Of a stretch of DNA of 64,000 nucleotides, positions 36,940-50,710 are shown piece by piece. The position numbers and the translations under genes were made by a program. Position 1 is the stretch's first letter, and every line of letters begins with the position of its first letter. Origin of the DNA: an uncultured Muribaculaceae bacterium (GTDB taxonomy: Bacteria > Bacillota_I > Bacilli_A > RF39 > UBA660); the NCBI GenBank assembly GCA_964369845.1, contig CAYJFJ010000002.1:8242-72241 (forward strand). Reading direction: 5' to 3'. The notes beneath the pieces are model-generated. The model made no database searches. It saw only the letters and a list, made by a program, of their open reading frames with translations, and had not been told where the DNA came from.

Positions 36940-37868
36940 TTCTCAAATTCCTTTTTTTTAACAAATATTTTCTTTAACTTTTGTGGATTATCTGTAGTAA
37001 TACTTATTTGTTCTATATTGGAATTTAATATTTCAATATCTATTTTTTTATACAGCATTTCTATATCTTTAACTTCATTGATCACATAAATTCCTAACTG
37101 TGAAAAATTATCAAGAGCATATTTAATAGTTTTATTTGTTAAAGCATTGCTTAAAGAAATTGTTAAATAATTCCATAGTAGTTTTAAATAGATTCTTATA
37201 TTTTCAACACTTTCCCAGTCAACATCGTAAGATGTTTTAATCCTAATGGACACACTATCTATATGTTTATATAGTTTACTTAAGTATAGTGCAAATTTAT
37301 AATCACAAAGTAAATCTGTTTTAATCTTTGTTAAACCTTTTTTTATCTGATACTTTCTTAAAATATCTAAATTATTTGGTATGAATGATAAATGAATAAT
37401 GTTATTACTTAGTTCAGGAAAATCACTTAATATGTTAGCTAAACTTGAAATATTTTTATTTTGAAATAAAAGTATGTCTTTTGTTTCTACTTTAATTACT
37501 TTACTACCTAATTTATCTGCGTTTTCCTTAAAATATTTCAAAACTTCTTCAAGCGTTACTATTTTAAAAGTATGATCACAAATACCATTACTGCTTTTTC
37601 TTGAACAGAAGTCATATCCTTTTAAATTTTCAAGGCTACTTTTTTTTACTTTGCCAACTCCATTTGAAACGTCATCAATAAATTCATCATGTATAATCAC
37701 TGGAATGTTGTCTTTTGTAAATACTATATCAAACTCAAATCCATCACATGAATCTAATAACTTTTCATTCTCAAAAATGTATTTCAAACTCTCAAAGGAA
37801 TTTTCTGGGTAATTTGTTTCTAAAAATCCTAAACGATGAGCAATTAATTTTACTTCTTTATTTATCAT
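36936..37868 (-). CDS. Glycerophosphodiester phosphodiesterase family protein (intact copy)
   Basis: IAHRLGF..YPENSFESL...FEFDIVFTKDNIPVIIHDE (GDPD catalytic His/Glu/Asp pattern). RBS GGAGG, and an extended -10 TGATATAAT upstream. Confidence 0.75.
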   Translation of the reverse strand: MINKEVKLIAHRLGFLETNYPENSFESLKYIFENEKLLDSCDGFEFDIVFTKDNIPVIIHDEFIDDVSNGVGKVKKSSLENLKGYDFCSRKSSNGICDHTFKIVTLEEVLKYFKENADKLGSKVIKVETKDILLFQNKNISSLANILSDFPELSNNIIHLSFIPNNLDILRKYQIKKGLTKIKTDLLCDYKFALYLSKLYKHIDSVSIRIKTSYDVDWESVENIRIYLKLLWNYLTISLSNALTNKTIKYALDNFSQLGIYVINEVKDIEMLYKKIDIEILNSNIEQISITTDNPQKLKKIFVKKKEFEK

Positions 37869-38030
37869 AGATTGCCTCCAATAAACTAATTATATCATGG
37901 AAAACTTATTTTCAAATATTTCCTATTTACATTTTAGTATAACGTTCACCTTTATTTAATATTAAAATTATTGCATTTTTTATAATTCTAAGTTATTATT
38001 GACTAATAAATGTGTAATTTAATATCTATA

Positions 38031-38407
38031 TCAATTCTTACTTATATTTAAAACTATTCCTATACTTGCAAGCGATATTAATAAACTTGAGCCACCATAA
38101 CTAAGAAAAGGTAATGTTACCCCTGTTACAGGTATTAAACCTACTACCACGCCTAAATTAAGAAGTGCCTGAACTAATATCCCTATTCCTATTCCAAATG
38201 ATAAATATTTTGGAAATAAATCTGTTTGCCTTAGAGAAATTTTTATAATTCTATAAAATATAAATAAGAAGAAAGTTGTTACAATTATAACTCCTAAAAA
38301 ACCAAATTCTTCACTTATAATTGAAAATATAAAATCTGTTTGGGGTTCTGGCAAGTAAAAGTGTTTTTGTCTTGAGGATATAAATCCTTGTCCTAAAAGA
38401 CCACCTG
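38031..38407 (-). pseudogene. 5'-truncated copy (copy A) of the ftsW/rodA-family gene 3' end
   Basis: The 377 nt align without indels to 39927..40303 (offset 1896). The frame is closed upstream by TAG at 38438-38436. The only start available is the TTG used by the ORF track (38354). It encodes just the last ~125 residues of the 359-aa protein. Confidence 0.8.
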
Positions 38408-38431
38408 AGTTATTTATAAAGTGATAAATTT

Positions 38432-38460
38432 TGAACTATTCGGAAATTCCGAATAGTTCA
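38432..38460. repeat. Perfect 29-nt palindrome (14-bp arms) at the cassette / ftsW-fragment junction
   Basis: TGAACTATTCGGAA-A-TTCCGAATAGTTCA. It lies 3 nt after the fic stop and 24 nt from the homology breakpoint at 38407. No U-tract follows in the minus (transcribed) sense. Confidence 0.85.
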
Positions 38461-38463
38461 CTT

Positions 38464-39204
38464 TTAATTAGTTTCTAATATACTAATATATTTTTCAAGT
38501 TCTAAGATTAAATAATCTGCTATCAAATTAGTCATGGCACTTAAATCTTCAGCGTCATCATAAACTTTAAATGCATCATAGTAATCTTTTTTATTTGTAT
38601 TTTTAATATTAATTGGAAGTAATCCATTTTTCATCAACTCAAAATTCATAATTAATCTACCACATCTACCATTTCCATCAATAAATGGATGTATTCTTTC
38701 AAATTTGATATGAAATAAGGCTATTTTTTCAACAATGTGCATAGATGTATCTTCATTATACCAATTGAGTAAATTATCAAGTCCTGGTTTAATCATAAAT
38801 GGCTGGGCTAATTCTACATTACTACCTACAATCTGTACAGGTATTTTTCTAAACTTTCCTCTATCGTCAGGTCTACTCATTAAAACCAAATTGTGAATAT
38901 TAAGAATTTCACTTTCACTTAAATTTTTTTTATTTTTTACTAAATCAAGTATATAGTAAAATGCATCTTTATGCCCTATTGCATCAAAATGATCATTAAC
39001 AGGTTTACCACTAATTGTAATTTTTTCTTTTATTACTAAAGCAGTTTCATCTAAAGTTAAAGTATTTCCCTCTATTGCGTTACTATCATAAGTATATTCA
39101 AGCATAAAGTTTTCATTTAATTTTTCTACTTCTCCTTGAGATAATGGTCTAAGACTACTTATCTTTTCCTTTAATTCATTTATTCTCAATAATTTACCAT
39201 CCAT
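38464..39204 (-). CDS. fic: Fic-family adenylyltransferase (AMPylator), class II-type with N-terminal inhibitory motif
   Basis: Fic core HPFIDGNGRCGRL (HxFx[D/E]GNGRxxR). Inhibitory-helix motif S41-NAIE-G46 (S/TxxxE[G/N]) lies upstream of the core. Confidence 0.88.
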   Translation of the reverse strand: MDGKLLRINELKEKISSLRPLSQGEVEKLNENFMLEYTYDSNAIEGNTLTLDETALVIKEKITISGKPVNDHFDAIGHKDAFYYILDLVKNKKNLSESEILNIHNLVLMSRPDDRGKFRKIPVQIVGSNVELAQPFMIKPGLDNLLNWYNEDTSMHIVEKIALFHIKFERIHPFIDGNGRCGRLIMNFELMKNGLLPINIKNTNKKDYYDAFKVYDDAEDLSAMTNLIADYLILELEKYISILETN

Positions 39205-39266
39205 CTTAATTCCTCTTTCTTACTTCTATTTTAACATATTAATATAAATATTCATCAAATTATTTA
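39205..39266 (-). repeat. Leader repeat copy 1 (upstream of fic): extended -10 + RBS
   Basis: Minus-sense AAATAATTTGATGAATATTTATATTAATATGTTAAAATAGAAGTAAGAAAGAGG. About 85% identical to 39690..39750 over ~55 nt by hand alignment. Contains TGTTAAAAT and AAGAGG. Confidence 0.7.
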
Positions 39267-39689
39267 TATATTTTTATTCAATTCAATTAAAATTTTGTTT
39301 TGCACTTCCTTATTAAACTCTTTATCAGTTTCATCAAATATCCATGAAAAACCATCATTTACATATCTTGGAAATATATGCAAATGATAATGACCTATAT
39401 CGTTAAATTTTCCACCATTTTGCATAATTGAATATCCGTCTAATTTATATATATTTTTCAATGTTTTAACTATTTTTTTTGTTAGGACATTAATTTCATT
39501 TAATATAGCAATATCAATTTCATCAACATCTAAAAAATGCTTTTTTGTTATTATAAGAACATGACCTTCATTAATAGGATCAGAATCTAAAAATGCAAAA
39601 ATTTTATCAGACTCATATATTTTTAAACATTCCTCATTATGATTTACCAACTCACAAAAAACACATGTTTCATTTCTTTTACTATCCAT
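39264..39689 (-). CDS. HIT-family (Hint-like) nucleotide hydrolase/phosphoramidase
   Basis: Histidine triad GHYHLHIFPR, N-terminal CVFC, and DPINEGHVLIITKKH. Confidence 0.88.
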   Translation of the reverse strand: MDSKRNETCVFCELVNHNEECLKIYESDKIFAFLDSDPINEGHVLIITKKHFLDVDEIDIAILNEINVLTKKIVKTLKNIYKLDGYSIMQNGGKFNDIGHYHLHIFPRYVNDGFSWIFDETDKEFNKEVQNKILIELNKNI

Positions 39690-39750
39690 ATTAACCTCTT
39701 TCTTACTATTATTTTAACATACTAATATGAATAATTATCGAATTATTTGA
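39690..39750 (-). repeat. Leader repeat copy 2 (upstream of the HIT gene)
   Basis: Minus-sense CAAATAATTCGATAATTATTCATATTAGTATGTTAAAATAATAGTAAGAAAGAGG. Its distal part forms the 3' end of the truncated GDPD fragment. Confidence 0.7.
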
Positions 39751-39899
39751 TTTTCTTTATCAAATTCAAATCCTTCACAAGAATCAAGAGCTTCTTTATT
39801 ATTAAAAATACAATTAAAACTTTCTAGTGATTTTTCAAGATATTTAGTTTCTAAAAATCCTAATCTATATGCTATTAATCTAATTTTATCGTTTATCAC
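39735..39899 (-). pseudogene. Truncated 5' fragment of a diverged glycerophosphodiester phosphodiesterase gene
   Basis: A GTG at 39899 behind RBS GAGGTG gives VINDKIRLIAYRLGFLETKYLEKSLESFNCIFNNKEALDSCEGFEFD-KENQIIR*. It is ~60% identical to residues 1-47 of the intact GDPD (36936..37868) and breaks after GFEFD. Confidence 0.75.
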
Positions 39900-39926
39900 T
39901 ATATTCACCTCAACAAGCTAATTATA

Positions 39927-40303
39927 TCACTTTTTACTTATATTTAAAACTATTCCAATGCTTGCAAGTGATATGAGTAAACTAGATCCGCCGTATGATA
40001 AGAAAGGAAGTGTAACTCCTGTTACAGGTATTAAACCCACTACCACGCCTAAATTAAGAAGTGCCTGAACTAATATCCCTATTCCTATTCCAAATGATAA
40101 ATATTTTGGAAATAAATCTGTTTGCCTTAGAGAAATTTTTATAATTCTATAAAATATAAATAAGAAGAAAGTTGTTACAATTATAACTCCTAAAAAACCA
40201 AATTCTTCACTTATAATTGAAAATATAAAATCTGTTTGGGGTTCTGGCAAGTAAAAGTGTTTTTGTCTTGAGGACATAAATCCTTGTCCTAAAAGACCAC
40301 CTG
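39927..40303 (-). repeat. Direct repeat copy B (3' end of the intact ftsW/rodA-family gene)
   Basis: Same 377 nt as 38031..38407. There are 22 mismatches in the 112 nt nearest the stop codon and 1 mismatch in the other 265 nt (hand alignment). Confidence 0.85.
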
Positions 40304-41006
40304 GCCCTATTGCGTATAAACTTTGTATTATTTGAAAACCACTACCTAAAGGGTCACTCCATGGATTTAAAAATGATACTATTCTTGCCACTCTATATGG
40401 AGCTACTATGACAAGTCCTACAACTCCTAATAGACCTGCTACTCCAAGTTTTATAAAAAAACTAAGTTTTACTCCTGATATGAATATGATTGCTATATTA
40501 GTCAAAACAAGAACTACTCCTGTTCCAAAATCTGGTTCCAACATTATAAGTGCAAATGAAAACATAATTACTCCTAAAAGAGGAATTATGTTTTTAATTT
40601 CATTATGTTCATTTATCTTATTTTTTGATAAATATTTAGCGGTAAAAATCATTAGTCCTAACTTAGAAAATTCCGACGGCTGCACACCAAAAGAACCTAT
40701 TCCAAACCAAGATCTAGATCCATTTCTTACAATACCTATTCCTGGAATTAGTACTAAAATTAAAAAAATTATACATCCAAAAAGTATTAAGTTACTTCTT
40801 TTTTCATATAATTTATAATTTATCTTTGATAAAACTAACGTACCTAGTATTCCCACTACTAAAAATACACTTTGATTCATTACAAATTTATATGGATTGC
40901 TAAATTTATACTCAGCCCATACATAACTTGATGAATATATCATAATGCATCCGAATACAGATAATAAAATAACACTTATTAAAAGTGGATAATCAACTTT
41001 TTTCAT
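39927..41006 (-). CDS. ftsW: FtsW/RodA/SpoVE-family (SEDS) peptidoglycan glycosyltransferase
   Basis: 359 aa, ~10 TM segments, with SEDS motifs GSRSWF.., QPSEFSKL, PEPQTDFIFS and LPFLSYGGSS. Confidence 0.88.
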   Translation of the reverse strand: MKKVDYPLLISVILLSVFGCIMIYSSSYVWAEYKFSNPYKFVMNQSVFLVVGILGTLVLSKINYKLYEKRSNLILFGCIIFLILVLIPGIGIVRNGSRSWFGIGSFGVQPSEFSKLGLMIFTAKYLSKNKINEHNEIKNIIPLLGVIMFSFALIMLEPDFGTGVVLVLTNIAIIFISGVKLSFFIKLGVAGLLGVVGLVIVAPYRVARIVSFLNPWSDPLGSGFQIIQSLYAIGPGGLLGQGFMSSRQKHFYLPEPQTDFIFSIISEEFGFLGVIIVTTFFLFIFYRIIKISLRQTDLFPKYLSFGIGIGILVQALLNLGVVVGLIPVTGVTLPFLSYGGSSLLISLASIGIVLNISKK

Positions 41007-41045
41007 ATAATAAATTATATTTTAATTTATTATGTTTATTCTATA

Positions 41046-41073
41046 AATTAAAAAACAGAATTATTTTCTGTTT
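41046..41073 (-). terminator. Terminator after the 41061..42671 gene
   Basis: Minus-sense AAACAGAA-AATAA-TTCTGTTT hairpin followed by UUUAAUUU. Confidence 0.55.
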
Positions 41074-42671
41074 AATTTTTTATACTCTTCTTCTTTAGCT
41101 ATCCATTTTCTATAGTTTGCTCTATTGATTTCTAGATTTTCTTCAATTTCTTGATTTACACTTATTATCAATGATTTATCTATAACTGATGCGAAATTAT
41201 ATTCTTTTAAGACACTTTGTAATAGTTCAAATTTTTGTTCTTCAATTAATCCGTAATTGTAAATTAAGTTTACTTGATTTAATGCGTTTCTGATAATATT
41301 AATTTGATTAATAGGCATTCTTTTATCTTTAGTGTAACCTTGATGTGATTCATTCATTAAATCAATAACTTTTGTGTAACCATAACTTTTTAAATATTTT
41401 ATAAAATACACATTCATTTCTAACATTTCAATACCACTATTTAAAACTTCTTCTTTTGTCAAATATGTAGCATCTAGTAAACTTAAGTTTTTTTCTGATA
41501 CAAAATTTACTACTGTATCAGCTGGCTTAATACCTAAATTTTTTGTATTATATAAATAATATTTTGTAAGTTTTAATATATCACTTAATTTTGTAACTCC
41601 TTCTTCTTTTAGTATATTAACCGTTTTATAATGAAAATTCATTTGTTCTAAACTAACATCTTCATAAACATCTAGACCTTGTTCATCTAATTTTTTATAA
41701 CTTAATCCATATTTGTTTAGTTTGTCTTTAGCTTCAGAGAATGCTTCTTGATTGTTAACTATATATTCTACTATTTTTTCATCGGTATTTACAAGATCAC
41801 ACGTATTTATAATTCCTTCTTTATTAAGTATAGAAACTATTTCAGAATCAAAGTAAAAACTTATACATCTACTAAGCAAATCGTTTCTATCTGCATTTTT
41901 TGAATCGCTTATAAATTTTAATTCTACCTTTTCTAAAAAGTTTTTAACAATTATTAAATCTTCATTATTTAGTGAAGTAAATGTTGTTAAAAAATCTTCT
42001 TCATAAATATTTAGAATGTTTCTTACATATATCATCTTTTTAGATTTAAAAGCATCAAGTATTTTTTCAGAAAAATCAAAATCGCTTAGTAATTTATCTA
42101 AAAATATATATTTTTTAGTTCCATAATAATCTTTATTTTCTCTGCTTTTTATACGTTCTTTTTTTACTGGCATCACTTCTTTTTTTTCTACTGAAATTTC
42201 TAGTACCTTAAGTTCTTCTTCCAAATTTGGAAATTCATTAACTAATGCTTTAATTACTTTTGCTTTTAATATTTCACTTAAATATTTTATATCTGTTCTT
42301 GCTTTACTTATAGAATTTTGTGATTTTACCTGATTTATTAATGACTTTATACTTTTGAGTTCTTTATTTTCTAGTTTTTTTCTCACTGCTGGACTTAAAT
42401 TCAATAAATATATTGAGCATTCTATTTTTTCTTCAAAAGTTAATGTTTTAAATACTTCATCATATAACTTTAAATTGTATTTATTTAATATGTCAGATAT
42501 TTTTTCTACTACTTTATTTGTTATGTATGGTAGTGATAGTAATTCACTTTTGCTTTTTTTTATTAAATCAGAAAGTAAATAAATACGATTTGTATTTAAA
42601 ATTCCTCTAATATTTTGATTTATTTCTTCTAAAATTTCTTCGTCAGTTTTTAATATTAATTTTCTTTCCAT
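41061..42671 (-). CDS. Protein made of ~6 tandem RNA polymerase alpha-subunit CTD-like (helix-hairpin-helix) domains
   Basis: Repeating ~60-aa units, e.g. FHYKTVNILKEEGVTKLSDILKLTKYYLYNTKNLGIKPADTVVNFVSEKNLSL and FDSEIVSILNKEGIINTCDLVNTDEKIVEYI...AKDKLNKYGLSY. These follow the alpha-CTD pattern L(S)xRxxNxLKRxGIxTVxDLxxxxxxELxxIxNxGxKSxxEIxxxLxxxGLxL. Confidence 0.55.
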   Translation of the reverse strand: MERKLILKTDEEILEEINQNIRGILNTNRIYLLSDLIKKSKSELLSLPYITNKVVEKISDILNKYNLKLYDEVFKTLTFEEKIECSIYLLNLSPAVRKKLENKELKSIKSLINQVKSQNSISKARTDIKYLSEILKAKVIKALVNEFPNLEEELKVLEISVEKKEVMPVKKERIKSRENKDYYGTKKYIFLDKLLSDFDFSEKILDAFKSKKMIYVRNILNIYEEDFLTTFTSLNNEDLIIVKNFLEKVELKFISDSKNADRNDLLSRCISFYFDSEIVSILNKEGIINTCDLVNTDEKIVEYIVNNQEAFSEAKDKLNKYGLSYKKLDEQGLDVYEDVSLEQMNFHYKTVNILKEEGVTKLSDILKLTKYYLYNTKNLGIKPADTVVNFVSEKNLSLLDATYLTKEEVLNSGIEMLEMNVYFIKYLKSYGYTKVIDLMNESHQGYTKDKRMPINQINIIRNALNQVNLIYNYGLIEEQKFELLQSVLKEYNFASVIDKSLIISVNQEIEENLEINRANYRKWIAKEEEYKKLNRK

Positions 42672-42691
42672 TTTTCCCCTTTTATACTTTT

Positions 42692-43420
42692 TTACTTTGT
42701 TTTTGCTTCTTTATTTTCTAAATTTTCATAAGCAACATAGTTATTTATATATAAAGCTTCACATAACAGTTGATATTTTTTAATTTCAAATAACATTTTT
42801 ATTTCTGCTACTTTACTTTGAAGCTCTTCTTCTCTAGTTTTCCCTACTGCTCTTAATCTTTTGATTTTTTCTTCTTTAAATTCTAGTAAATCATCTACTG
42901 TGAAAACATCAGTTCTAGACAATGCATTTTCTACAGCCGGTGATAATCCTATATTTTGAATTTCTGTAGCTAATGTTATTTCTTGTGATGAATCTACGTA
43001 AAGAGCTAGTGATACTTCTTCTAATGCTTGTTTTAATTTTTTCATACTTGAACTTGGTATAATACCTTTTTTTACTAATAAATTTTCACTTATTGAAACT
43101 AAACTACCTATTTTATTTATTTTTTTATTTTCTAAATTAGCTACTATATCATGACTTATATTTAACTTAGATACTTCTGATTCGTATAATTCTTCTTTTG
43201 ATAATTCTTTTAAATCCACAAGTCTCAAACCAAATCCAGCTAAAAATTCTTTGATTGCTATTATTTTAGTAGCACCTATACTTCTAATTCTTGCAAGCTC
43301 ACTTTCTGATTTATTTGATAACTGACCTATAGTTGATATTCTTCTTCTCATTAAACATAAAACAATACCTCTATCTAAATTTGTTTCTGTTAATATTACT
43401 TCCATTATATTATTATTCAT
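42692..43420 (-). CDS. Protein made of 3 tandem RNA polymerase alpha-CTD-like domains
   Basis: First unit NLDRGIVLCLMRRRISTIGQLSNKSESELARIRSIGATKIIAIKEFLAGFGLRL is a close match to the alpha-CTD consensus. Two further units: ISHDIVANLENKKINKIGSL... and LSPAVENALSRTDVFTVDDLLEFKEEKIKRLRAVGKTREEEL. Confidence 0.6.
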   Translation of the reverse strand: MNNNIMEVILTETNLDRGIVLCLMRRRISTIGQLSNKSESELARIRSIGATKIIAIKEFLAGFGLRLVDLKELSKEELYESEVSKLNISHDIVANLENKKINKIGSLVSISENLLVKKGIIPSSSMKKLKQALEEVSLALYVDSSQEITLATEIQNIGLSPAVENALSRTDVFTVDDLLEFKEEKIKRLRAVGKTREEELQSKVAEIKMLFEIKKYQLLCEALYINNYVAYENLENKEAKTK

Positions 43421-43441
43421 TTTTCCCCCATTAATACTAAT

Positions 43442-43470
43442 ATTATATCATATTTGTTACATTTTGTCAA
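43442..43470 (-). promoter_or_regulatory. Perfect-consensus sigma-A promoter for the alpha-CTD-repeat operon
   Basis: Minus-sense TTGACA (43470-43465), 17-nt spacer, TATAAT (43447-43442). RBS GGGGGAA precedes the ATG at 43420. Confidence 0.7.
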
Positions 43471-43497
43471 AAAAATAAAAAGACATGATTAGTCTTT
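43471..43497 (-). terminator. Terminator after the rel homologue
   Basis: Minus-sense AAAGAC-TAATCAT-GTCTTT followed by UUUAUUUUUUU. Overlaps the stop at 43489-43491. Confidence 0.55.
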
Positions 43498-44952
43498 AAA
43501 TATTTCATTTATTTTATTTTGTGTATAATTTGTAAATGCATTATCTTGCCAAATTTTTTTCATTTCTTCATTTAATATTTCACTACTTTTTTCTTCAACA
43601 GTTTCAATACTCACTAAATCATTATTTTTAAGTGTGTAATTAAGCGGAACTGGTTTAGCATTTACAAAAGCTTCTATCATCGAGTCTCCTACGTTTGTAT
43701 TTATTTTATATGCATAATCAATGGGAGTTGATCCTTTTGGAAGCTCTATAATATCTCCTTTTGGAGAGTATACATATACCTTACTTGAAAAAAGTTCGTT
43801 TTTAACTTGTTCTACAAAGTCCGCATCATGCTCTAACATATCATTCATTTCTGCAAGTGAGCTGAAAAATTGATATTTATTTCTTAAATCATTTTGCATA
43901 AATTTTCTTGCTTCTAGTTTATTGATATCCCAGTAAGAACATAAACCAAAATCTGCAATACTGTCCATTTCATAAGTTCTAATTTGTATTTGTATTAACT
44001 TATCATACGATATAAATACACTTGTATGAATTGATTGATACATATTTGTTTTAGGATTACTTATATAATCTTTAAACTTATGATTTATCGCCTTGAACTC
44101 TTCATGGATTAGACCTAATATTTTATAGCAATCATTTTTTTCATTTACTAATATTTTAATTGCAAATAATTCATTAGCTTTAGATATTTTATCTCCTTCT
44201 TGACTACGCTTAAACATTTCATAGACACTTTTTTCTTCAAGAGAAACTTTAAATTCTACATTGCTAGTTATTAATTTATTATTTATTTTATTAATAGTAT
44301 CACTTATTAATGTCTTGTTTCTATCTTCTATTATCTTTGACATTTTTTTATATTTATCATAAATTTCCTCTTCTAAATACATAAAAGATAAATTTTCTAG
44401 TTCTGTTTTCAATTTGTAAGCTCCAATATAAAAAGCAAGTGGTACAAATATTTCCATTGTTTCTAAAGATTTTTCTATTTGTTTTTCTCTACTTTTAAAC
44501 TGAAGAGTTCTTTGATTATGTACTCTATCTGCTAGCTTTATTATTATAATTCTTACATCATCTATTAAGCTTATTAATATTTTTCTTGTGTTAGCTAAAT
44601 CATTTTCTTCTTTAGTAGGAAGTTTTAATTTAGAAATTTTTGTAACGCCTTCAACTAAGTTAGCTATATCTTCATTAAAATCCTCTATAATTTCTTCTTT
44701 AGTTACGTCACAGTCTTCAAGTGTATCATGTAAAAGTGCTGCACATATTGTATCAGTATCTGCGTGCATTTGAGCTAGTATAAAAGCAACTTCAAGTGGA
44801 TGAGTAATATATGCATCTCCACTTTGTCTTACTTGTCCTTTATGTAAGTTTTCTGCAAAGTTATACGCTTTTTCTATTATAATTTTATCTTCTTTATTAT
44901 AATTACCTACTATTTTTATCAAGTTACTTAAATTTTTTTCCATAGTTATCAA
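43489..44952 (-). CDS. rel: Short RelA/SpoT-homologue: HD hydrolase + degenerate synthetase-like domain + TGS, lacking the C-terminal regulatory domains
   Basis: Hydrolase motifs RQSGDAYITHPLEVA and LLHDTLEDC. RelA_SpoT region YQSIHTSV. TGS domain VYVYSPKGDIIELPKGSTPIDYAY. Only 487 aa. Confidence 0.8.
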   Translation of the reverse strand: MITMEKNLSNLIKIVGNYNKEDKIIIEKAYNFAENLHKGQVRQSGDAYITHPLEVAFILAQMHADTDTICAALLHDTLEDCDVTKEEIIEDFNEDIANLVEGVTKISKLKLPTKEENDLANTRKILISLIDDVRIIIIKLADRVHNQRTLQFKSREKQIEKSLETMEIFVPLAFYIGAYKLKTELENLSFMYLEEEIYDKYKKMSKIIEDRNKTLISDTINKINNKLITSNVEFKVSLEEKSVYEMFKRSQEGDKISKANELFAIKILVNEKNDCYKILGLIHEEFKAINHKFKDYISNPKTNMYQSIHTSVFISYDKLIQIQIRTYEMDSIADFGLCSYWDINKLEARKFMQNDLRNKYQFFSSLAEMNDMLEHDADFVEQVKNELFSSKVYVYSPKGDIIELPKGSTPIDYAYKINTNVGDSMIEAFVNAKPVPLNYTLKNNDLVSIETVEEKSSEILNEEMKKIWQDNAFTNYTQNKINEIFKD

Positions 44953-45048
44953 CTTCCTTAAATTTAATTAAATATAACACTAATGTACATTAATTGTCAA
45001 TTTTTAAAATAAATTTTATTTATGATTTTTTTTTGGTATAATAACTAT

Positions 45049-46233
45049 ATGAAGAAATTGTTTATTTTATTATTAACCATAGTGTTAATATCCATACCAC
45101 TTACTACAATTGTGTATTTGAATTTTGAAAAAGAAACTCCAGTCAGTAATGATTATTTTACTCAAGAAGATAATTTAATATTTACTTATTATCAAGAAAT
45201 TTATTTAAAAGATTATATTTCTTTGAATGACTCTTATTTAATTGATGAAAAAATATTAATTGATACTTCCAAACTTGGTGAAAGTATATTTGAATTTAAT
45301 TATATTTACGAGGACAAAGAATATATCGGTCAGTTTAAATACTTTGTTATTGATGATACTGCTCCGCTTGTAATAAACTCTACTAATTATACTATTGAGA
45401 AAGGTAGTGAATTTTCTTATCAAAATATATTTTGCGCAGATAACTATGATAAAAGACCAATATGTGAAGTAACTGGTACATATGATATTAATACTCCTGG
45501 AGTTTATAATTTAACATTTGTAGCTACTGATTCAAGTAATAATGTTACTGAAAAAAATATTACTTTAACTGTTAAAGAAGAAATCATACCTAGCACTTCT
45601 ACTTATGAACCTACTCCTATTTATATCGAAGATATTATTGAAAAACATAAAACTGAGTCAACAAAGATCGGTGTTGATGTTTCTAAATGGCAAGAAGAAA
45701 TTGACTGGGAAATGCTAAAGGATTCTGGTGTTGAATTTGCTATCATCCGAATTGGGTATGGCTGGGAAGAAAATAAATTAGATGAGTATTTTTGGACTCA
45801 CTTTAACGGAGCAAAAAATGCTGGTCTTGATGTTGGAGTTTACTTTTATAGTTATGCTGATAGTGTTGATGAAGCCATTATGCAAGCAAACTGGGTTGTT
45901 GATACTTTAGATGGAGCTAAACTTGATTTACCAATTTCTTATGACTGGGAAGAATGGAGTAAATTTAATACTTATAATATAAGCTTAACTGAACTTAATT
46001 TAATGGCTGCATCTTTCATCGATACCGTTGAAAAGCATGGTTATATTGGTATGAATTATGGTAGCGCATCATATCTTAAAAATATTTGGACTCTTAATGA
46101 TAATCTTACTTGGCTTGCTCATTATACTAGCCAAACAAATTATGAAAATGACTATTATATTTGGCAATTAACCCACTATGGAAAAGTTCCAGGATATGAT
46201 GGCTTCATTGATTTAAATGTACTTTATGAATAA
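45049..46233 (+). CDS. Membrane-anchored GH25 muramidase (lysozyme) with an Ig-like (DUF5011-type) domain
   Basis: GH25 signature IGVDVSKWQEEIDWEMLKDSGVEFAIIRIGYG. Ig-like segment DDTAPLV...YNLTFVATDSSNNVTEKNITLTV. TM LFILLLTIVLISIPLTTIV. I prefer the ATG at 45049; 45022 is the alternative. Confidence 0.75.
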   Translation: MKKLFILLLTIVLISIPLTTIVYLNFEKETPVSNDYFTQEDNLIFTYYQEIYLKDYISLNDSYLIDEKILIDTSKLGESIFEFNYIYEDKEYIGQFKYFVIDDTAPLVINSTNYTIEKGSEFSYQNIFCADNYDKRPICEVTGTYDINTPGVYNLTFVATDSSNNVTEKNITLTVKEEIIPSTSTYEPTPIYIEDIIEKHKTESTKIGVDVSKWQEEIDWEMLKDSGVEFAIIRIGYGWEENKLDEYFWTHFNGAKNAGLDVGVYFYSYADSVDEAIMQANWVVDTLDGAKLDLPISYDWEEWSKFNTYNISLTELNLMAASFIDTVEKHGYIGMNYGSASYLKNIWTLNDNLTWLAHYTSQTNYENDYYIWQLTHYGKVPGYDGFIDLNVLYE

Positions 46234-46241
46234 AGTACTTT

Positions 46242-46652
46242 TTATTTGATTATATATTTATTTTCTAATAAATATTTTTTTATTTTGGGATACAATGGTT
46301 TAAAAGAATCAAAGTTGTAATACTTTATTAATTCATCTAGTGTTACATATTTATATTCTAGTATTTCTGATGGCTGCACTATTATATCTGTCGTAAGTTG
46401 TTTAAATATATAATATATTACTTCTTTATCTATTTTTTTATCTATTATATAGTTTTCTTTAAATACTTTTTCATCTAATAAGCTTACTTCTAAATTAGTT
46501 TCCTCCTTTATTTCTCTATAAGCAGTTTCTAAATCTGTTTCCCCTTTTTCTTTATGACCTTTTGGAAAGCTATAACACTCATTTCTTTGTTTTACTATTA
46601 ATATTTTATTATCGTGGATTATAATTCCTCCACAAGATACTTCTTTTTTCAT
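46242..46652 (-). CDS. Nudix hydrolase
   Basis: Nudix box PKGHKEKGETDLETAYREIKEETN. Overlaps the upstream gene by 4 nt. Confidence 0.8.
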   Translation of the reverse strand: MKKEVSCGGIIIHDNKILIVKQRNECYSFPKGHKEKGETDLETAYREIKEETNLEVSLLDEKVFKENYIIDKKIDKEVIYYIFKQLTTDIIVQPSEILEYKYVTLDELIKYYNFDSFKPLYPKIKKYLLENKYIIK

Positions 46653-47134
46653 TTATTTAACCTTTCTAAAATTTTATATTTTATTTCTTTATTATTTACA
46701 AAATAACTACCTTCATAACCTATTTTTTTGTGATATATATTTTTTCCGAGCTCACTATTTAAAGTTATTTCTTCTTCTGTTTCACTAATATATTTACCTG
46801 TAAGTTTTATAACAATTGTCTCTTGATCATTTTCACTAAAAATAAGTAATATTTTTATAAAATCATTTATGTTAACAACACTTTTTTTATACTCATCAGT
46901 TATTAAAACTATATCTTTTTTTAAATTATTTATTTTTTTTAATTCATCTAAATATATTCTTTCTTGCCTCGCTGCATCTTCTGCTGCAAAATTATCATGC
47001 CATCCATCTCCAGGTGCATCTTGCATTGCATCAGCTTTAATTTTATTATTCAAATTTATTTTTTCATAAATTTTTAATTTAATATCTTCAAACTGTTTTA
47101 TTCCATAGCTATCTAGCAGTATTTTTTCAGTCAT
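46649..47134 (-). CDS. GreA/GreB-like factor with atypical coiled-coil tip
   Basis: DAPGDGWHDNFAAEDAARQERIYLDEL parallels the GreA tip region GDLSENAEYxAAKxxQ. C-terminal ITLNSELGKNIYHKKIGYEGSYFV..IKYKILE parallels the GreA C-domain. Overlaps the helD stop by 8 nt. Confidence 0.5.
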   Translation of the reverse strand: MTEKILLDSYGIKQFEDIKLKIYEKINLNNKIKADAMQDAPGDGWHDNFAAEDAARQERIYLDELKKINNLKKDIVLITDEYKKSVVNINDFIKILLIFSENDQETIVIKLTGKYISETEEEITLNSELGKNIYHKKIGYEGSYFVNNKEIKYKILERLNK

Positions 47135-49214
47135 TTTTAACCTCTAAAAAGGATGCTACATTATCTTTATATAATATATCTAAATTATGATGTGCTCTTG
47201 TCATAGCTACATATAAAAGTAATAAATCTATTTTACTTTCTTCTTTGTACTTTGATAAATCAGAAATTATTACGCTGTCAAATTCTAACCCTTTTGATAA
47301 ATAACTTGGTATTATCAAAATATTTTCATTGTATTCATTTTGTAAATCTGTTACCACTTTTGCATCTACTTCACTTTCTTTTAGTAACTCATAAATGCTT
47401 ATACTTTCCTTTTCGTCTTTAGTTATTATGGCTATTGTTTTGTGTTTTTTTTCTAAGTTATTTTTTACTAAAGTTATAAGATTTTCTTTCAAGTTATTTA
47501 TTTTTATATACTTAACTTCATCTCCATGCCTTATTACTGGCTGTGCTTCATATAACTTTAAATATCTTGTTATTTTATTTGCTTCTAACATGATTTCTTT
47601 TGTTGTACGATAACTTTTCTGTAATTTTTTTAAATCACAGTTTTCAAACACGTTATTTAAAATATATTCCCAGTTTTCAATAGATTTATAACTATATATG
47701 CCTTGTGATAAATCCCCAAAAATACTAAACGTACTTTTTGACAATGTCTTTTTAAGTGCATAAAAACTAAAGTCACCATAATCTTGTGCCTCATCGACAA
47801 CAGTATGTTTATATTTTTCATAATTTCCTGAACCAAAAAGTTTATAATTAAAATATAAAAGCGCTGGTAAATCTTCTGCTTCTACTTCTTTTTTCTTCAA
47901 ATGTTTAATTATACTTTTCACTTCTTCTGTTTCATATGTCTTTTCTAAAAAATCAATATATAACTTCAAAATCTTTTGATTTGCACCTTTGTAATACTTC
48001 TTTATATGCATCACTACTTTTGTTTTCAATTCTTTTTCTACTAGAAGTAACTCTTGCTTAGTTTTCTCATTTTCTTCTTTTAAATAAAAATTATTTCTTA
48101 TCTCCATTAATATTCTTATTTGATTATCATTAATATACTTTATAGTTCTTGCTATAACTTTTTCTATTTTTTTACTATAAATGTCTTGATCATTTACTTC
48201 ATTATAAATATTTATCATTTTTTGTTTTGAAATTATTTGATAACCTTTAATTTCTAAATTTCCTTTTGGAAGTAAATCTTCTTTAAATTTATCAATATAT
48301 TTATCTATATCTATTTTATATTTCATTGAATTTCGATAAAAATTAAAGTTGTTAATATTAAATTCACTAATATATTTACTTAAGTTTTTTTCATCACTTA
48401 ATAAAATCAATTTTTCATCTAGCAAATCTTTAACTAAATCAAAGTATGTTAATTGTTTTACTTCAGGAGAATCTAAATCAGGTAAAATATTTGATATGTA
48501 GTTAACAAAAAAATTATTTGGACCAATAACTAAGTATTCATCTGGTTTTATTTTTTCAATATTATTATAAATTAAATATGCTACCCTATGAAGTGCTACA
48601 GTTGTTTTTCCTGATCCTGCTACTCCTTGCACAACTATATTTTTATTGATGCTTTGCCTTATAATTTCATTTTGCTCTGCTTGTATTGTAGAAACTATAT
48701 TTTTAAGTCTGTTATCAGCATTTGTATTTAGATACGGCTTTAACATTTCATCATTTGCAACTGTATCTATATCTTGATAATTTTTTAAATTTCCTTCTTC
48801 AATTTCAAATTGTCTTTTTAATTTTAAGTTACCCTTTATAACTCCTGATGGTGCTTCGTATGATGAATCTCCTACATTTGAATCATAATAAACTGCTGCA
48901 ATTGGAGCTCTCCAATCTACTGTAATTATTTTGTTTTCATCATTTGATACTCCGACTTTTCCTATATAACATATTTCTTTTTTTCCATCTTCGGCTACGA
49001 AATCTATTCTTGCAAAATATGGTTTTTCTAAATTATTAGTCATTAGTTTCAGTTTATGATTAGCTCTATATAATAAATCTGCTAACTGAAAAGGATTGTC
49101 TTTAATCATACTTGGTAAATTATCAATTCTTTTTTTTGTATGATTTAGCATCTGTCTAAATTCTGTTTTCGTATTATTTAAATGTAATACTTCTTCTTCA
49201 AAGTTTTTTTTCAC
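47127..49214 (-). CDS. helD: HelD-type (helicase IV-like, UvrD superfamily) RNA polymerase-recycling ATPase
   Basis: VVQGVAGSGKTTVALHRVAYLIY Walker A, DEAQDY, YRTTKEI and GLEFDSVII motifs. The N-terminal ~150 aa is typical of HelD. Confidence 0.8.
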   Translation of the reverse strand: MKKNFEEEVLHLNNTKTEFRQMLNHTKKRIDNLPSMIKDNPFQLADLLYRANHKLKLMTNNLEKPYFARIDFVAEDGKKEICYIGKVGVSNDENKIITVDWRAPIAAVYYDSNVGDSSYEAPSGVIKGNLKLKRQFEIEEGNLKNYQDIDTVANDEMLKPYLNTNADNRLKNIVSTIQAEQNEIIRQSINKNIVVQGVAGSGKTTVALHRVAYLIYNNIEKIKPDEYLVIGPNNFFVNYISNILPDLDSPEVKQLTYFDLVKDLLDEKLILLSDEKNLSKYISEFNINNFNFYRNSMKYKIDIDKYIDKFKEDLLPKGNLEIKGYQIISKQKMINIYNEVNDQDIYSKKIEKVIARTIKYINDNQIRILMEIRNNFYLKEENEKTKQELLLVEKELKTKVVMHIKKYYKGANQKILKLYIDFLEKTYETEEVKSIIKHLKKKEVEAEDLPALLYFNYKLFGSGNYEKYKHTVVDEAQDYGDFSFYALKKTLSKSTFSIFGDLSQGIYSYKSIENWEYILNNVFENCDLKKLQKSYRTTKEIMLEANKITRYLKLYEAQPVIRHGDEVKYIKINNLKENLITLVKNNLEKKHKTIAIITKDEKESISIYELLKESEVDAKVVTDLQNEYNENILIIPSYLSKGLEFDSVIISDLSKYKEESKIDLLLLYVAMTRAHHNLDILYKDNVASFLEVKND

Positions 49215-49334
49215 TATAAAACACCTCCAATAAAAACTTTATAGAGATCTTTTTAGCCTAAGTAAAAAATCAGCTAGTTAAATAATATCATAGCTTTTTA
49301 TGAATAACAATACTTTTACAAAAAAAAATTAAAG

Positions 49335-49634
49335 CTAATCTACTTTAATTTTCACTCCATTTACTTCTTTGTAAGTTCTGTTTTCATTTATTTTCAACTT
49401 TTCATTTATTGCTTTTTCTAAATCAATATTTAAATATTCACATATACCTAACATATATAGTGCAACATCTGCAAATTCTGATGGCAAATCTTCCTTATTT
49501 TTTCTGTAAGCGTCGTACGCTTCACCAACTTCACCATATAACAAACAAAATTCTTTTTCTATATTTCCTAAACTAAAACCTTTGTTTTTTTTGTTTTCTA
49601 TAACTTTTTTTCCTACTAAATTTAAATCTATCAT
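49335..49634 (-). CDS. MazG-like nucleotide pyrophosphohydrolase domain protein
   Basis: 99 aa four-helix pattern LLYGEVGEAYDAYRK...EFADVALYMLGI. Overlaps the trpS stop by 4 nt. Confidence 0.6.
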   Translation of the reverse strand: MIDLNLVGKKVIENKKNKGFSLGNIEKEFCLLYGEVGEAYDAYRKNKEDLPSEFADVALYMLGICEYLNIDLEKAINEKLKINENRTYKEVNGVKIKVD

Positions 49635-50611
49635 CTACTAAGCCCCATTCTTTCTTTCATTAATTCATATTTAGCTTTTGCAATTTTTCTAGTTTCTTCT
49701 TTTCCTTTATCAAGTATTTTATTTAAAGCATCACTTTCTATGTAGTGTTTATATTTTTCTTGAATTTCTGATAATTCATTTACAACAATATCAGCGACAT
49801 ATTTTTTAAAGTCTCCATAACCTTTTCCTGCAAATTCGTTTTCTACTTCTTCTATCTTTTTATCAGTTAAAGATACCACTATATTTATTAGGTTTGATAT
49901 ACCAGGCTTATTTTCCATATCAAATTTAACTATAGATTCACTATCAGTAGTTGCACTCATTATTTTCTTTCTAGCAACTAATACATCATCTAGTATACTT
50001 ATATAAGTTTTAGGATTATCACTTGATTTACTCATTTTTTTTGTAGGGTCTACTAAATCCATAATCTTAGTTCCACTTTTTGAAATTAAAACATCTGGCA
50101 CTTTAAATGTATCTCCATATTTTTTATTAAATTTTTCTGCTGTGTTTCTTGCAAGTTCAACATGCTGTTTTTGATCGATTCCAACTGGAACATAATCTAC
50201 ATCATATATTAAAATATCAGCTGCCATTAATACAGGATAAGTAAAAAGTCCTGCTGTAAATGATACATTTTTAGCTGATTTATCTTTGAACTGTGTCATT
50301 CTTGATAATTCTCCGTATGGAGTACTGCACTCTAATAACCATGATACGTTAGTATGATATTCATTATCTGATTGCATAAATATAACATTTCTATCTGGAT
50401 TTATCCCGCATGCTAAGTATAGTGCTGCTAACTCTTTAATTTTTTTTGTTAAACTTTCACTATCTTGCGGAACTGTTATTGCATGTAAATCTGCTATGAA
50501 AATTTTTGAATCATAATTTTCTTGAAGTTTAATCATTTGTTTAATTGATCCAATATAATTACCTAGCGTTATAGTTCCTGATGGCTGAATTCCTGTTATA
50601 ATTTTTTTCAT
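49631..50611 (-). CDS. trpS: Tryptophanyl-tRNA synthetase
   Basis: GIQPSGTITLGNYIG, KMSKS (KKMSKSS), 326 aa. Confidence 0.93.
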   Translation of the reverse strand: MKKIITGIQPSGTITLGNYIGSIKQMIKLQENYDSKIFIADLHAITVPQDSESLTKKIKELAALYLACGINPDRNVIFMQSDNEYHTNVSWLLECSTPYGELSRMTQFKDKSAKNVSFTAGLFTYPVLMAADILIYDVDYVPVGIDQKQHVELARNTAEKFNKKYGDTFKVPDVLISKSGTKIMDLVDPTKKMSKSSDNPKTYISILDDVLVARKKIMSATTDSESIVKFDMENKPGISNLINIVVSLTDKKIEEVENEFAGKGYGDFKKYVADIVVNELSEIQEKYKHYIESDALNKILDKGKEETRKIAKAKYELMKERMGLSR

Positions 50612-50684
50612 AGTATATCTCCCTTACATTTAATAAAAGTTTATCATAGTACTTACTTACTGTCAAATAATCTTATATTATTCA

Positions 50685-50710
50685 ATAAAAAAAGACGCTA
50701 ATGCATCTTT
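50685..50710 (-). terminator. Terminator after mraY
   Basis: Minus-sense AAAGAUGC-AUUA-GCGUCUUU (one G-U pair) followed by UUUUUAUUG. Confidence 0.6.

Follow-up and report, generated by a model that had tools for sequence, protein, structure and literature searches.

Genes A and B, two neighbouring genes of an uncultured gut Bacilli genome, encode paralogous cytoplasmic proteins that are almost wholly composed of tandem double HhH domains of the alpha-CTD type, three in A and six in B. The alpha-CTD is among the best-studied regulatory surfaces of bacterial transcription and is treated as part of RpoA. In A and B, its units are detached from the polymerase-assembly domain. The residues of the units suggest that the fold has been kept and that the canonical reading of DNA has mostly been lost. 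In this study, the domain identity, contact residues, expression signals, relatives, and genomic setting of A and B were analyzed, and the possible functions of the two proteins were weighed. The window referred to below is the whole 64-kb stretch of DNA that was analyzed.

Gene organization and expression signals

The boundaries of A and B (Table 1) were verified by an ORF check. The promoter is situated between Rel and A, and 21 nt separate it from the A start codon. It agrees with the consensus at 12/12 positions and has, in addition, a TG extended -10. No other perfect TTGACA-17-TATAAT is present across the 64-kb window; 0.23 copies per window are expected by chance, and at least one was obtained in 20 of 100 shuffles. 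The start context GGGGAAAAATG is common to A and B. It has exactly two copies in the window, both at start codons (0.03 expected by chance; two copies in 0/100 shuffles). The spacer between the two genes has a fold energy of 0 kcal/mol; therefore, a terminator is absent between A and B.

A terminator-like hairpin follows the Rel stop codon and would insulate the A-B operon from Rel. A second one is located at the end of B, and its loop holds the B stop codon; equal stability was reached in 3 of 200 shuffles. Neither hairpin was called by the pattern scan, because the stem has fewer than three G-C pairs in the former and only two in the latter. The promoter, the shared RBS, the lack of structure in the spacer, and the hairpins and U-runs on either side make it probable that A and B form a bicistronic unit of their own, transcribed from the consensus promoter. 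Apparently, they are strongly expressed. The two-gene operon with 20-nt spacing, the perfect promoter at 43470-43442, and the common initiation context had been claimed in an earlier note on this DNA; the operon is supported, and the spacing, the promoter, and the context were confirmed. Rfam and tRNA scans of the 64-kb window gave no match, and at the DNA level no tandem repeat was found whose period corresponds to that of the units.

Table 1. Features of the A-B locus. PF03118 scores are those of the isolated units.
Feature	Coordinates	Strand	PF03118 (bits)	Custom HMM (bits)	Description
Weak hairpin, then U-run, after Rel stop codon	43479..43497	(-)			Terminator-like; RNA fold -6.4 kcal/mol, z -1.2; UUUUUAUUUUUUU follows
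Promoter, sigma-A/sigma-70-type	43442..43470	(-)			TTGACA 43470-43465, 17-nt spacer, TG extension, TATAAT 43447-43442
Shine-Dalgarno-like GGGGG of gene A	43425..43429	(-)			Part of GGGGAAAAATG
Gene A	42692..43420	(-)			242 aa; three alpha-CTD-like units and 35-aa helical tail
Unit A1 (aa 10-67)	43220..43393	(-)	24.8	52	Gly296 hairpin kept; pI 9.6
Unit A2 (aa 80-140)	43001..43183	(-)	14.3	27.8	Below PF03118 cut-off; degenerate
Unit A3 (aa 150-207)	42800..42973	(-)	34.2	42	Asn268 and Gly296 kept
A-B spacer, 20 nt	42672..42691	(-)			Second GGGG RBS at 42676-42679; unstructured
Gene B	41061..42671	(-)			536 aa; six alpha-CTD-like units, charged linker at aa ~151-190, 62-aa helical tail
Unit B1 (aa 18-69)	42465..42620	(-)	15.8	32.4	
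Unit B2 (aa 84-~150)	42222..42422	(-)		9.9	Custom HMM match over aa 84-114
Unit B3 (aa 191-253)	41913..42101	(-)		11.1	Degenerate; custom HMM match over full profile length
Unit B4 (aa 274-324)	41700..41852	(-)		11.1	Degenerate
Unit B5 (aa 339-398)	41478..41657	(-)	32.1	33	Most canonical unit
Unit B6 (aa 409-469)	41265..41447	(-)		10.7	Degenerate
B C-terminal tail (aa 475-536)	41064..41249	(-)			No Pfam match; helix predicted at low confidence only
Terminator-like hairpin at B end	41045..41073	(-)			8-bp stem AAACAGAA/UUCUGUUU, then UUUAAUUU; RNA fold -8.6 kcal/mol, z -2.84

Assignment of the units to the alpha-CTD family

The Pfam family PF03118 (RNA_pol_A_CTD; cut-off 23.8 bits) matched A with 56.2 bits in three stretches and B with 40.1 bits. 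It was the sole Pfam family above cut-off for A, for B, and for the isolated units A1, A3, and B5. Isolated A2 and B1 scored below the cut-off. PF03118 was the sole family match of A2; B1 matched T4_baseplate (18.7 bits, below that family's own cut-off) better than PF03118 (15.8 bits), which in turn ranked above the generic HhH families. HHH_5, HHH_2, and HHH_8 gave 14-17 bits against A, B, and the units, with cut-offs of 27-30 bits; the sub-threshold matches of HHH_2 and HHH_5 fell on A1 and A3.

A custom HMM, for which 502 units were taken from other array proteins, found three units in A and six in B, in regular register. The four weak units of B had 9.9-11.1 bits, a level that was reached in 1 of 2000 shuffles of B. 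One of them, B2, has a clear first half and an atypical second half without a hairpin, which was aligned in MAFFT. When a profile of all nine units was run against the PDB, every match was an RpoA chain (best E 2.7e-12). With a profile restricted to the four weakest units of B, the B. subtilis alpha-CTD ranked first, over its full length (9.7e-7), and no other HhH family was among the PDB matches listed for the two profiles. By profile, A and B thus share the same ~60-aa domain with the alpha-CTD of RpoA (PDB 1Z3E/3IHQ for B. subtilis and 1LB2 for E. coli), which gave the top PDB matches of every unit profile, B. subtilis first. The hydrophobic core is also common to both: almost every unit has hydrophobic residues at the equivalents of E. 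coli L262, L270, I275, I278, L281, L289, I303, and L307. AF2 single-sequence models of A and B were all-helical but unreliable (pLDDT 36 and 41); in the B model, the C-terminal tail forms a helix at aa 499-534 with a pLDDT around 50. The first part of B (aa 11-113) is 36% identical to aa 7-109 of A, which makes the two proteins paralogs.

RpoA has an alpha-NTD/dimerisation domain and one CTD on a flexible linker, whereas A and B have no such domain and carry three and six tandem copies of the CTD. The RpoA model TIGR02027 (cut-off 227.8 bits) gave 64.2 bits for A and 35.4 bits for B and aligned at profile positions 202-298 only, and the alpha-NTD Pfam family had no match in A or B. Accordingly, A and B were rejected as RpoA proper. 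Identity with the BREX kinase PglW was also rejected, the match being a local one of 67 aa to the alpha-CTD-like segment only (33.4 bits; cut-off 990). That segment was the only PADLOC match (40.8 bits).

The earlier note had described arrays of three and about six alpha-CTD-like domains with no alpha-NTD, and both points held. It had set the profile comparison with PF03118 beforehand as its refuting test. This comparison did not move the repeats to another HhH family, because PF03118 is above cut-off and even the weak-unit profile still ranks the B. subtilis alpha-CTD first.

Residues for DNA contact

The 265 determinant for UP-element DNA, which we take to be R265, N268, G296, K298, and S299 of E. 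coli, was traced through the units. The RpoA contacts R265, N268, K298, and S299 are mostly replaced in A and B. Arg265 is found in 0/9 units (Lys in B3 and B5), Asn268 in 2/9, Lys298 in 2/8, and Ser299 in 1/8. The Gly296 hairpin is kept in three of eight units, namely A1, A3, and B5; A2 has Pro in place of the hairpin Gly. A near-complete set (Lys265, Asn268, Gly296, and Lys298) is present in B5 only. For comparison, 64% of the units of other arrays have Arg265 (P about 1e-4 against 0/9) and 79% have Gly296. The pI values of A and B are near neutral (6.7 and 6.4, respectively), and six of the nine units are acidic.

Multi-alpha-CTD proteins in metagenomes

An exhaustive search returned 220 proteins. 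The best 149 besides the query all carry 2 to 13 units, and 37 of these 149 are pure arrays, that is, at least three tandem PF03118-like units and no other domain; examples were confirmed with Pfam. A and B, with at least three units over most of their length and no other domain, are pure arrays as well. Others are P0012 (four units), P0152 and P0053 (three units in 226 aa), P0010 (five units and a coiled tail), P0092 (degenerate), and P0003 and P0005 (11-12 units). P0152 resembles A in its size and layout; B has similar arrays in P0010 and P0092. None of the pure arrays is an ortholog, because they reach at most 30-36% identity with A, and only in the repeat pattern. P0152 is encoded by one gene in housekeeping surroundings, whereas A and B are a gene pair. 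Most pure-array units keep Arg265 and Gly296, in contrast to the units of A and B. Some pure arrays bear signal peptides.

In other architectures, the units are fused to sigma-70 region 4 (P0024, with arrays), to a ResIII/SNF2 helicase with sigma region 4 (P0007, three units), to Mrr with a helicase and sigma region 4 (P0014), or to TPR (P0016 and P0020, two units each). In these proteins and in PglW, the domain is a portable module outside RpoA, as in A and B, but it is accompanied by catalytic, HTH, or TPR domains, which A and B lack. The alpha-CTD-like domain of PglW lies in the region to which nucleic-acid binding has been ascribed (PMC12839542). Multi-alpha-CTD proteins are common in metagenomes and seemingly uncharacterised. 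No experimental literature on them was found, which agrees with the statement of the earlier note that such arrays are not known as characterised; the arrays are not unique, since 220 proteins were returned.

Genomic setting and origin

In this genome, which has 74% A+T, mraY and ftsW are separated by a hypervariable insertion that contains A and B; the two genes are lineage-specific cargo of this hypervariable spot of the cell-division (dcw) cluster. The equivalent slot upstream of ftsW is occupied by HipA-like, NUDIX, DinB, and EEP genes in the nearest relatives. RNAP-linked genes are frequent around A and B (HelD, 394 bits; a Gre-like ORF; Rel), and Fic and HIT genes are inserted just downstream. 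The relative L089 has kept HelD, the Gre-like ORF, and NUDIX and has neither A nor B.

Homologous-protein searches with A and with B returned the queries alone, and genome contigs scanned with B and with the neighbouring Rel gave no relatives. Related loci (1.6 Mb) were gathered by anchoring on ValS and FtsW; no A/B-like ORF was found in them by tblastn or HMM. A and B therefore appear to be singletons without a detectable ortholog. A recent duplication of the 3' end of the host rpoA was rejected because the units share no more than 31-35% of their residues with the RpoA CTD of a related MAG (35% for A3). No PHROG match was found for A or B, and tblastn with A against 50,697 phage and 72,556 plasmid records gave no match. 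A consensus-like array gave nothing beyond single-unit matches in the phage records, and nothing was found in viral contigs scanned with P0012. A prophage or plasmid origin of A and B is thus unsupported by the PHROG comparison of both proteins and the phage and plasmid search with A.

Discussion

We tentatively favor a role of A and B as modular adaptors that make weak, largely sequence-independent DNA contact. The two proteins would act as beads on a string. A1, A3, and B5, which keep the HhH glycine hairpin, may touch the DNA backbone weakly and largely irrespective of sequence; the six degenerate units, with the fold-determining core only, could serve as spacers or protein-contact surfaces. 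The pair might tether partners to the AT-rich chromosome or bridge them there, and it would not read UP-element-like sequences as RpoA does. The use of the domain as a nucleic-acid module elsewhere (the sigma-70 region 4, ResIII/SNF2, and Mrr fusions, and PglW) speaks for the adaptor reading. The loss of Arg265 from all units, the scarcity of Asn268 and Ser299, the pI values, and the acidity of most units speak against it.

A possible, though less probable, role is that of pure protein-protein scaffolds or decoys, which would have lost DNA binding and would bind RNAP-associated factors or titrate factors that dock on alpha-CTD. E. coli NusA offers a functional analogy for the degenerate units: its acidic repeats AR1-AR2 are tandem, mostly acidic (HhH)2 domains that bind proteins, namely lambda N and alpha-CTD, and not DNA. 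A core conserved while Arg265 is lost from 9/9 units and the hairpin Gly from 5/8, the six acidic units, and the RNAP-linked neighbours HelD, Gre-like ORF, and Rel are consistent with such a role. However, the known docking surfaces of alpha-CTD are not conserved either. The equivalent of B. subtilis Tyr263, the Spx contact, is V, V, E, R, R, L, V, V, and I across the nine units. The low identity of the units to the related RpoA CTD also weighs against scaffolds or decoys, as does L089, in which HelD, the Gre-like ORF, and NUDIX persist without A and B. Finally, no sequence relationship to NusA was detected: HHH_5 is below cut-off, and NusA chains were absent from the PDB profile matches at E up to 10.

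It is rather unlikely that A and B are free-standing alpha-CTD mimics that titrate host regulators or intercept phage factors, with the wider alpha-CTD/sigma-region-4 fusions as 'integrated decoys'. In that case, the promoter-recognition surfaces of RNAP would be guarded by those fusions in which the partner is a nuclease, helicase, or kinase, and the mimics would intercept phage factors that dock on or modify alpha-CTD.

A conflict function of A and B as cargo of a variable island, either as a sensor or decoy that mimics alpha-CTD against phage factors or in another defence or counter-defence role, is unlikely. Such a function would suit the hypervariable slot and its contents in the nearest relatives, the lack of orthologs, and the Fic and HIT insertions; an alpha-CTD-like domain also occurs in PglW and is fused to Mrr or helicases and sigma region 4. 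It is at odds with the absence of an effector domain from A and B, of any PADLOC match beyond the PglW segment, of PHROG relatives, and of a phage or plasmid tblastn match for A. A mimic would be expected to be more similar to the related RpoA CTD than A and B are, and an A-like three-unit array of a Clostridia MAG sits amid housekeeping genes.

The function favored in the earlier note, binding to AT-rich or UP-element-type DNA, was weakened by the contact residues. That A and B are canonical minor-groove binders of this kind, or abundant nucleoid proteins, competing with RpoA for A/T tracts, now seems improbable. The units are alpha-CTD homologs in an A+T-rich genome, the strong promoter and RBS suggest abundance, and in other arrays the majority of units have retained the 265 determinant. 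Yet in A and B Arg265 is present in no unit, the hairpin in three, and a near-complete contact set in B5 only, and neither protein is basic. As for decaying or non-functional repeat ORFs without a selected function, the degeneracy of six of the nine units and the lack of a homolog that could show purifying selection would fit, but this is very improbable in view of 242 and 536 codons intact in 26% G+C DNA, where chance stop codons are frequent, the perfect promoter, the duplicated RBS, and the core residues kept in nearly all units.

Being small and soluble-looking, with clear canonical and degenerate units, A and B are a convenient test case. They are singletons in an uncultured organism; therefore, the general class may be a better experimental target. 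The locus reveals that the alpha-CTD domain also exists as free tandem arrays, here in a promoter-equipped two-gene operon. Such arrays are present in no fewer than 149 unrelated protein clusters from metagenomes, where a TPR, helicase, nuclease, or sigma region 4 module is often adjacent. Should the arrays bind DNA, they would represent a new kind of multivalent architectural protein; should they bind proteins instead, they would be candidate RNAP mimics with a part in regulation or in conflict with phages.

Domain identity and copy number of A and B

Proteins A and B, the products of two adjacent minus-strand genes, carry bona fide PF03118 (RNA_pol_A_CTD) domains, the C-terminal domain of the RNA polymerase alpha subunit RpoA (alpha-CTD). 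In a Pfam scan, PF03118 was the sole family over its curated cut-off (23.8 bits) in both proteins, with 56.2 bits for A and 40.1 bits for B; the generic HhH families HHH_5 and HHH_2 stayed under their own cut-offs. When a profile of the nine A/B units was compared with the PDB, the first 55 matches listed were exclusively RpoA, headed by the B. subtilis alpha-CTD (2.7e-12). The same domain was the top match of a profile of the four weakest B units (9.7e-7, end-to-end alignment). The specific alpha-CTD likeness claimed in an earlier note thus held against assignment to another HhH family, and the domain identification is solid. That A or B is an RNA polymerase alpha subunit was excluded, as their matches to the NCBIfam RpoA models were confined to the last ~100 model positions and scored far under the cut-offs. 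PADLOC matches were confined to one stretch of the BREX kinase PglW, its alpha-CTD-like segment, which has been described as a helical domain that resembles the CTD of the alpha subunit and lies in the portion of PglW that binds nucleic acids (PMC12839542). A and B are neither RpoA nor PglW and belong to no named family.

The units were counted with a custom HMM built from 502 alpha-CTD-like units of 149 other proteins, A and B excluded. It found three units in A (A1-A3; 52, 28, and 42 bits) and six in B (B1-B6; 32.4, 9.9, 11.1, 11.1, 33.0, and 10.7 bits), all in regular register, which bears out the arrays of three and about six domains noted earlier. Any match of at least 9.9 bits was obtained with 1 of 2000 shuffles of B. 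In single-unit Pfam scans, A1, A3, and B5 exceeded the PF03118 cut-off, A2 and B1 matched PF03118 under it, and B2, B3, B4, B6, and the B tail had no significant family match. The units are 13-27% identical to A1 and no DNA-level repeat with the unit period was found; hence, the arrays are old or fast-evolving, not recent amplifications.

Gene pair, promoter, and operon-like layout

The two minus-strand open reading frames, separated by 20 nt, are present as the earlier note had described them, together with the perfect consensus promoter and the initiation context common to both genes (see the table of features). At the 26% G+C of the window, chance would be most unlikely to leave frames of 242 and 536 codons open. 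The promoter is intergenic, 21 nt 5' of the A start codon, and is the sole perfect match in the 64-kb window (chance expectation, 0.23; at least one in 20/100 shuffles). Just two copies of GGGGAAAAATG are present in the window, one at each of the A and B start codons (expected, 0.03; two copies in 0/100 shuffles).

RNA folding showed an unstructured spacer between A and B, an 8-bp hairpin with a U-run over the B stop codon (-8.6 kcal/mol, z -2.8), and a weaker hairpin with a U-run 3' of the Rel gene. Neither hairpin was called by a strict terminator pattern scan because of their A/U-rich stems. With this promoter and the putative terminator, the A/B pair has the appearance of a self-contained bicistronic operon. 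Residues 11-113 of B are 36% identical to residues 7-109 of A; this identity and the common initiation region suggest that A and B are paralogues derived from a tandem gene duplication.

Features of the A/B pair and its surroundings (window positions unless stated as residues)
Feature	Position	Strand	Remarks
Gene A	42692-43420	minus	ORF, 242 aa
Gene B	41061-42671	minus	ORF, 536 aa
TTGACA-17-TATAAT promoter	43470-43442	minus	12/12 consensus positions; TG extended -10
Charged linker of B	aa ~151-190		matches no family (Pfam)
C-terminal tail of B	62 aa		matches no family (Pfam)
Tail of A	35 aa		matches no family (Pfam)
Rel/SpoT homologue	43489-44952		487 aa; directly 5' of A
Gre-like ORF	46649-47134		161 aa; after HelD, before NUDIX gene
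HelD-type RNAP recycling helicase/motor	47127-49214		NF041464, 394 bits, just under cut-off 419
PARCEL-repeat lipoprotein-like surface protein	1469-2947		492 aa
Surface protein with OmpL47-type beta-barrel domain	53782-57336		1184 aa

Loss of DNA-contact residues

Every unit was placed in an alignment with the alpha-CTD of E. coli and that of B. subtilis. The core positions (E. coli L262, L270, I275, I278, L281, L289, I303, and L307) are hydrophobic in nearly all units. By contrast with this core, the UP-element DNA contacts of E. coli alpha-CTD (R265, N268, G296, K298, and S299) are mostly substituted. Arg265 is absent from all nine units, where the position reads G, D, A, N, A, K, E, K, Y. 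Asn268 occurs in 2/9 units, the hairpin Gly296 in 3/8 (A1, A3, and B5), and Ser299 in 1/8. These losses weaken the earlier proposal of an AT-rich or UP-element-type DNA binder. The corresponding columns in the 502 units of other arrays hold 64% Arg, 50% Asn, 79% Gly, and 47% Ser; at 64% frequency, zero Arg in nine units has a P of ~1e-4. B5 is the sole unit with a near-complete set (Lys265, Asn268, Gly296, and Lys298). At the column that corresponds to B. subtilis Tyr263, the Spx contact, the aligned A/B units showed no conservation either. Judging from these alignments, A and B appear to have kept the alpha-CTD fold and none of its known functional surfaces. The pI values of the two proteins are 6.7 and 6.4, six of the nine units are acidic, and no obvious signal peptide was seen by eye at either N-terminus.

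Host lineage and the mraY-ftsW slot

The window ValS is 67-81% identical to ValS of uncultured gut MAGs, mostly labelled Bacilli, Tenericutes, Erysipelotrichaceae, 'Clostridium sp. CAG:628', and 'Firmicutes bacterium CAG:460', which indicates that the host belongs to an uncultured low-G+C gut Bacilli lineage. Several related loci (L003-L007, L017, L056, L074, L075, L083, L089, and L120) are on MAG records titled 'uncultured Muribaculaceae' (Bacteroidota). Their ValS and FtsW are 66-81% identical to those of the low-G+C Bacilli-like window and group with MAGs labelled Bacilli or Tenericutes, so these titles look like mislabels.

The order in the direction of transcription is SpoVD-type PBP, MraY, TrpS, HelD, Gre-like ORF, NUDIX, GH25 lysozyme (on the opposite strand), Rel, A, B, and FtsW/SpoVE. 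The GreA/GreB C-terminal domain scored 17.8 bits in the Gre-like ORF and 22.1 bits in its L089 counterpart, sub-threshold at a cut-off of 26.9. The HelD, Gre-like, and NUDIX trio (46242-49214) is kept in the relative L089. Rel is short, with HD, synthetase, and TGS domains and without the usual C-terminal regulatory domains; no close homologue was found in a scan of the genome collection, and no Rel relative lies within 10 kb of ftsW in the 80 related loci.

These 80 MAG loci (L083-L162) were anchored on FtsW. mraY lies directly 5' of ftsW in 46 of them, within 200 nt in 37 of the 46; the distance in the window is 9.7 kb (41006-50709). In the two closest relatives (77-78% FtsW identity), the slot content is quite unlike that of the window. 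The L089 slot holds DinB, an EEP nuclease, four NUDIX genes, and a HipA-like gene; that of L083 holds hydrogenase subunits, NUDIX, a HipA-like gene in split form, and an ORF of 363 aa. The slot just 5' of ftsW is a hypervariable hotspot inside the normally conserved dcw cluster. tblastn and HMM searches of 1.6 Mb of related loci gave no A/B-like ORF, the sole match being a normal rpoA, and A and B are singletons in a collection of 5.8 billion proteins. Given the divergent slot content, the lack of A/B-like ORFs in relatives, and this singleton status, A and B are lineage-specific cargo of the variable spot. When 1.84 billion representatives were searched exhaustively with HMMER, the protein closest to A had 30% identity (1e-26). 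Recent copying from the host rpoA was rejected, since A3 shares just 35% identity with the RpoA CTD of L102, a related MAG.

The window carries two copies of the ftsW 3' end (38027-38326 and 39923-40222; 93% DNA identity over 300 nt, 1896 nt apart), and the similarity extends weakly into the GDPD gene at its 5' end (37801-37867 and 39832-39898). A 107-aa ORF (38031-38354) holds the duplicated segment, its protein being 98% identical to FtsW residues 253-359. Two genes lie between the copies, HIT (39264-39689) and Fic (38464-39204), each immediately preceded by one copy of a 75-nt repeat (39212-39286 and 39695-39769; 81% identical). The arrangement of positions 37801-40250 suggests that the ftsW-GDPD junction has undergone an insertion or a duplication.

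Phage and plasmid searches

A and B had no PHROG match, and tblastn with A as query gave no phage or plasmid relative. With a consensus-like array as query, the phage matches were limited to lone units in a small number of records. These short 'phage' records (H1-H13), which come from human faecal samples or from phages of Listeria, Staphylococcus, and Enterococcus, hold a single alpha-CTD-like stretch of ~65 aa, probably host rpoA sequence and not a phage gene.

The class of multi-alpha-CTD proteins

An exhaustive search with A yielded 220 proteins at E <=1e-3. All 149 best matches of the 220, query excluded, contain 2-13 units, and 37 of the 149 are pure arrays (at least three units over at least 60% of the protein). 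A and B belong to this large, unnamed set, within which they are unusual in being a paralogous pair with its own consensus promoter, in having lost Arg265 throughout, and in having no orthologue. In agreement with the earlier note, which knew of no characterised arrays, no literature on tandem alpha-CTD proteins was found. Exact-sequence look-up placed ten class representatives in nameless, tiny clusters.

Pfam-confirmed architectures comprise TPR with two units (~445 aa), sigma-70 region 4 with arrays, and long arrays; confirmed fusions are ResIII/SNF2 helicase with sigma region 4 and three units, and Mrr with helicase, sigma region 4, and units. The TPR family (P0016, P0020, and ~30 similar matches of ~440-450 aa) has an N-terminal TPR followed by exactly two strong units (130-148 bits for PF03118), and thereby couples a protein-interaction module directly to alpha-CTD-like domains. 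Sigma-70 region 4 recurs with arrays in P0007, P0014, and P0024 (Sigma70_r4 support in Pfam, just under cut-off in P0024), in P0077, P0104, P0011, and P0081 by eye, and in P0073, which has no such Pfam support; part of this set sits on ResIII/SNF2 helicase or Mrr nuclease proteins. These fusions unite the two RNAP modules responsible for reading the -35 and UP regions. P0003, P0005, and P0006 are long arrays (5-12 units) with hydrophobic, signal-peptide-like N-termini and may be exported versions. P0152, an A-like three-unit protein, was found on 25 contigs; its neighbours in a Clostridia MAG are housekeeping genes (RadA, DisA, PPIase, then S20 and RpiB).

Possible roles of A and B

From their sequences, A and B can tentatively be read, in the interpretation that we favour, as a beads-on-a-string adaptor of hairpin-bearing and degenerate units. 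The three hairpin-bearing units would make weak, largely non-specific contact with the DNA backbone, and the six degenerate units would function as spacers or make protein contacts. The chief alternative, a scaffold or decoy that acts purely on proteins, would have its analogy in NusA, which carries acidic (HhH)2 repeats. Both the loss of Arg265 and the HelD/Gre-like/Rel neighbourhood agree with this alternative; however, L089 keeps HelD, the Gre-like ORF, and NUDIX without A and B, and the known docking surfaces are all lost, and we consider it rather unlikely. A conflict-related decoy or sensor is improbable: the variable island location and the PglW, nuclease, and helicase fusions in the class favour it, but A and B lack an effector domain, and their likeness to the RpoA CTD of a related MAG is weak. 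About as improbable is the canonical UP-element or nucleoid binder, an idea weakened by the residue data. Decaying genes are very improbable, since the ORFs are intact, the core is conserved, and expression signals are present. The A/B pair itself is a singleton in an uncultured organism; it is the multi-alpha-CTD class that deserves study.
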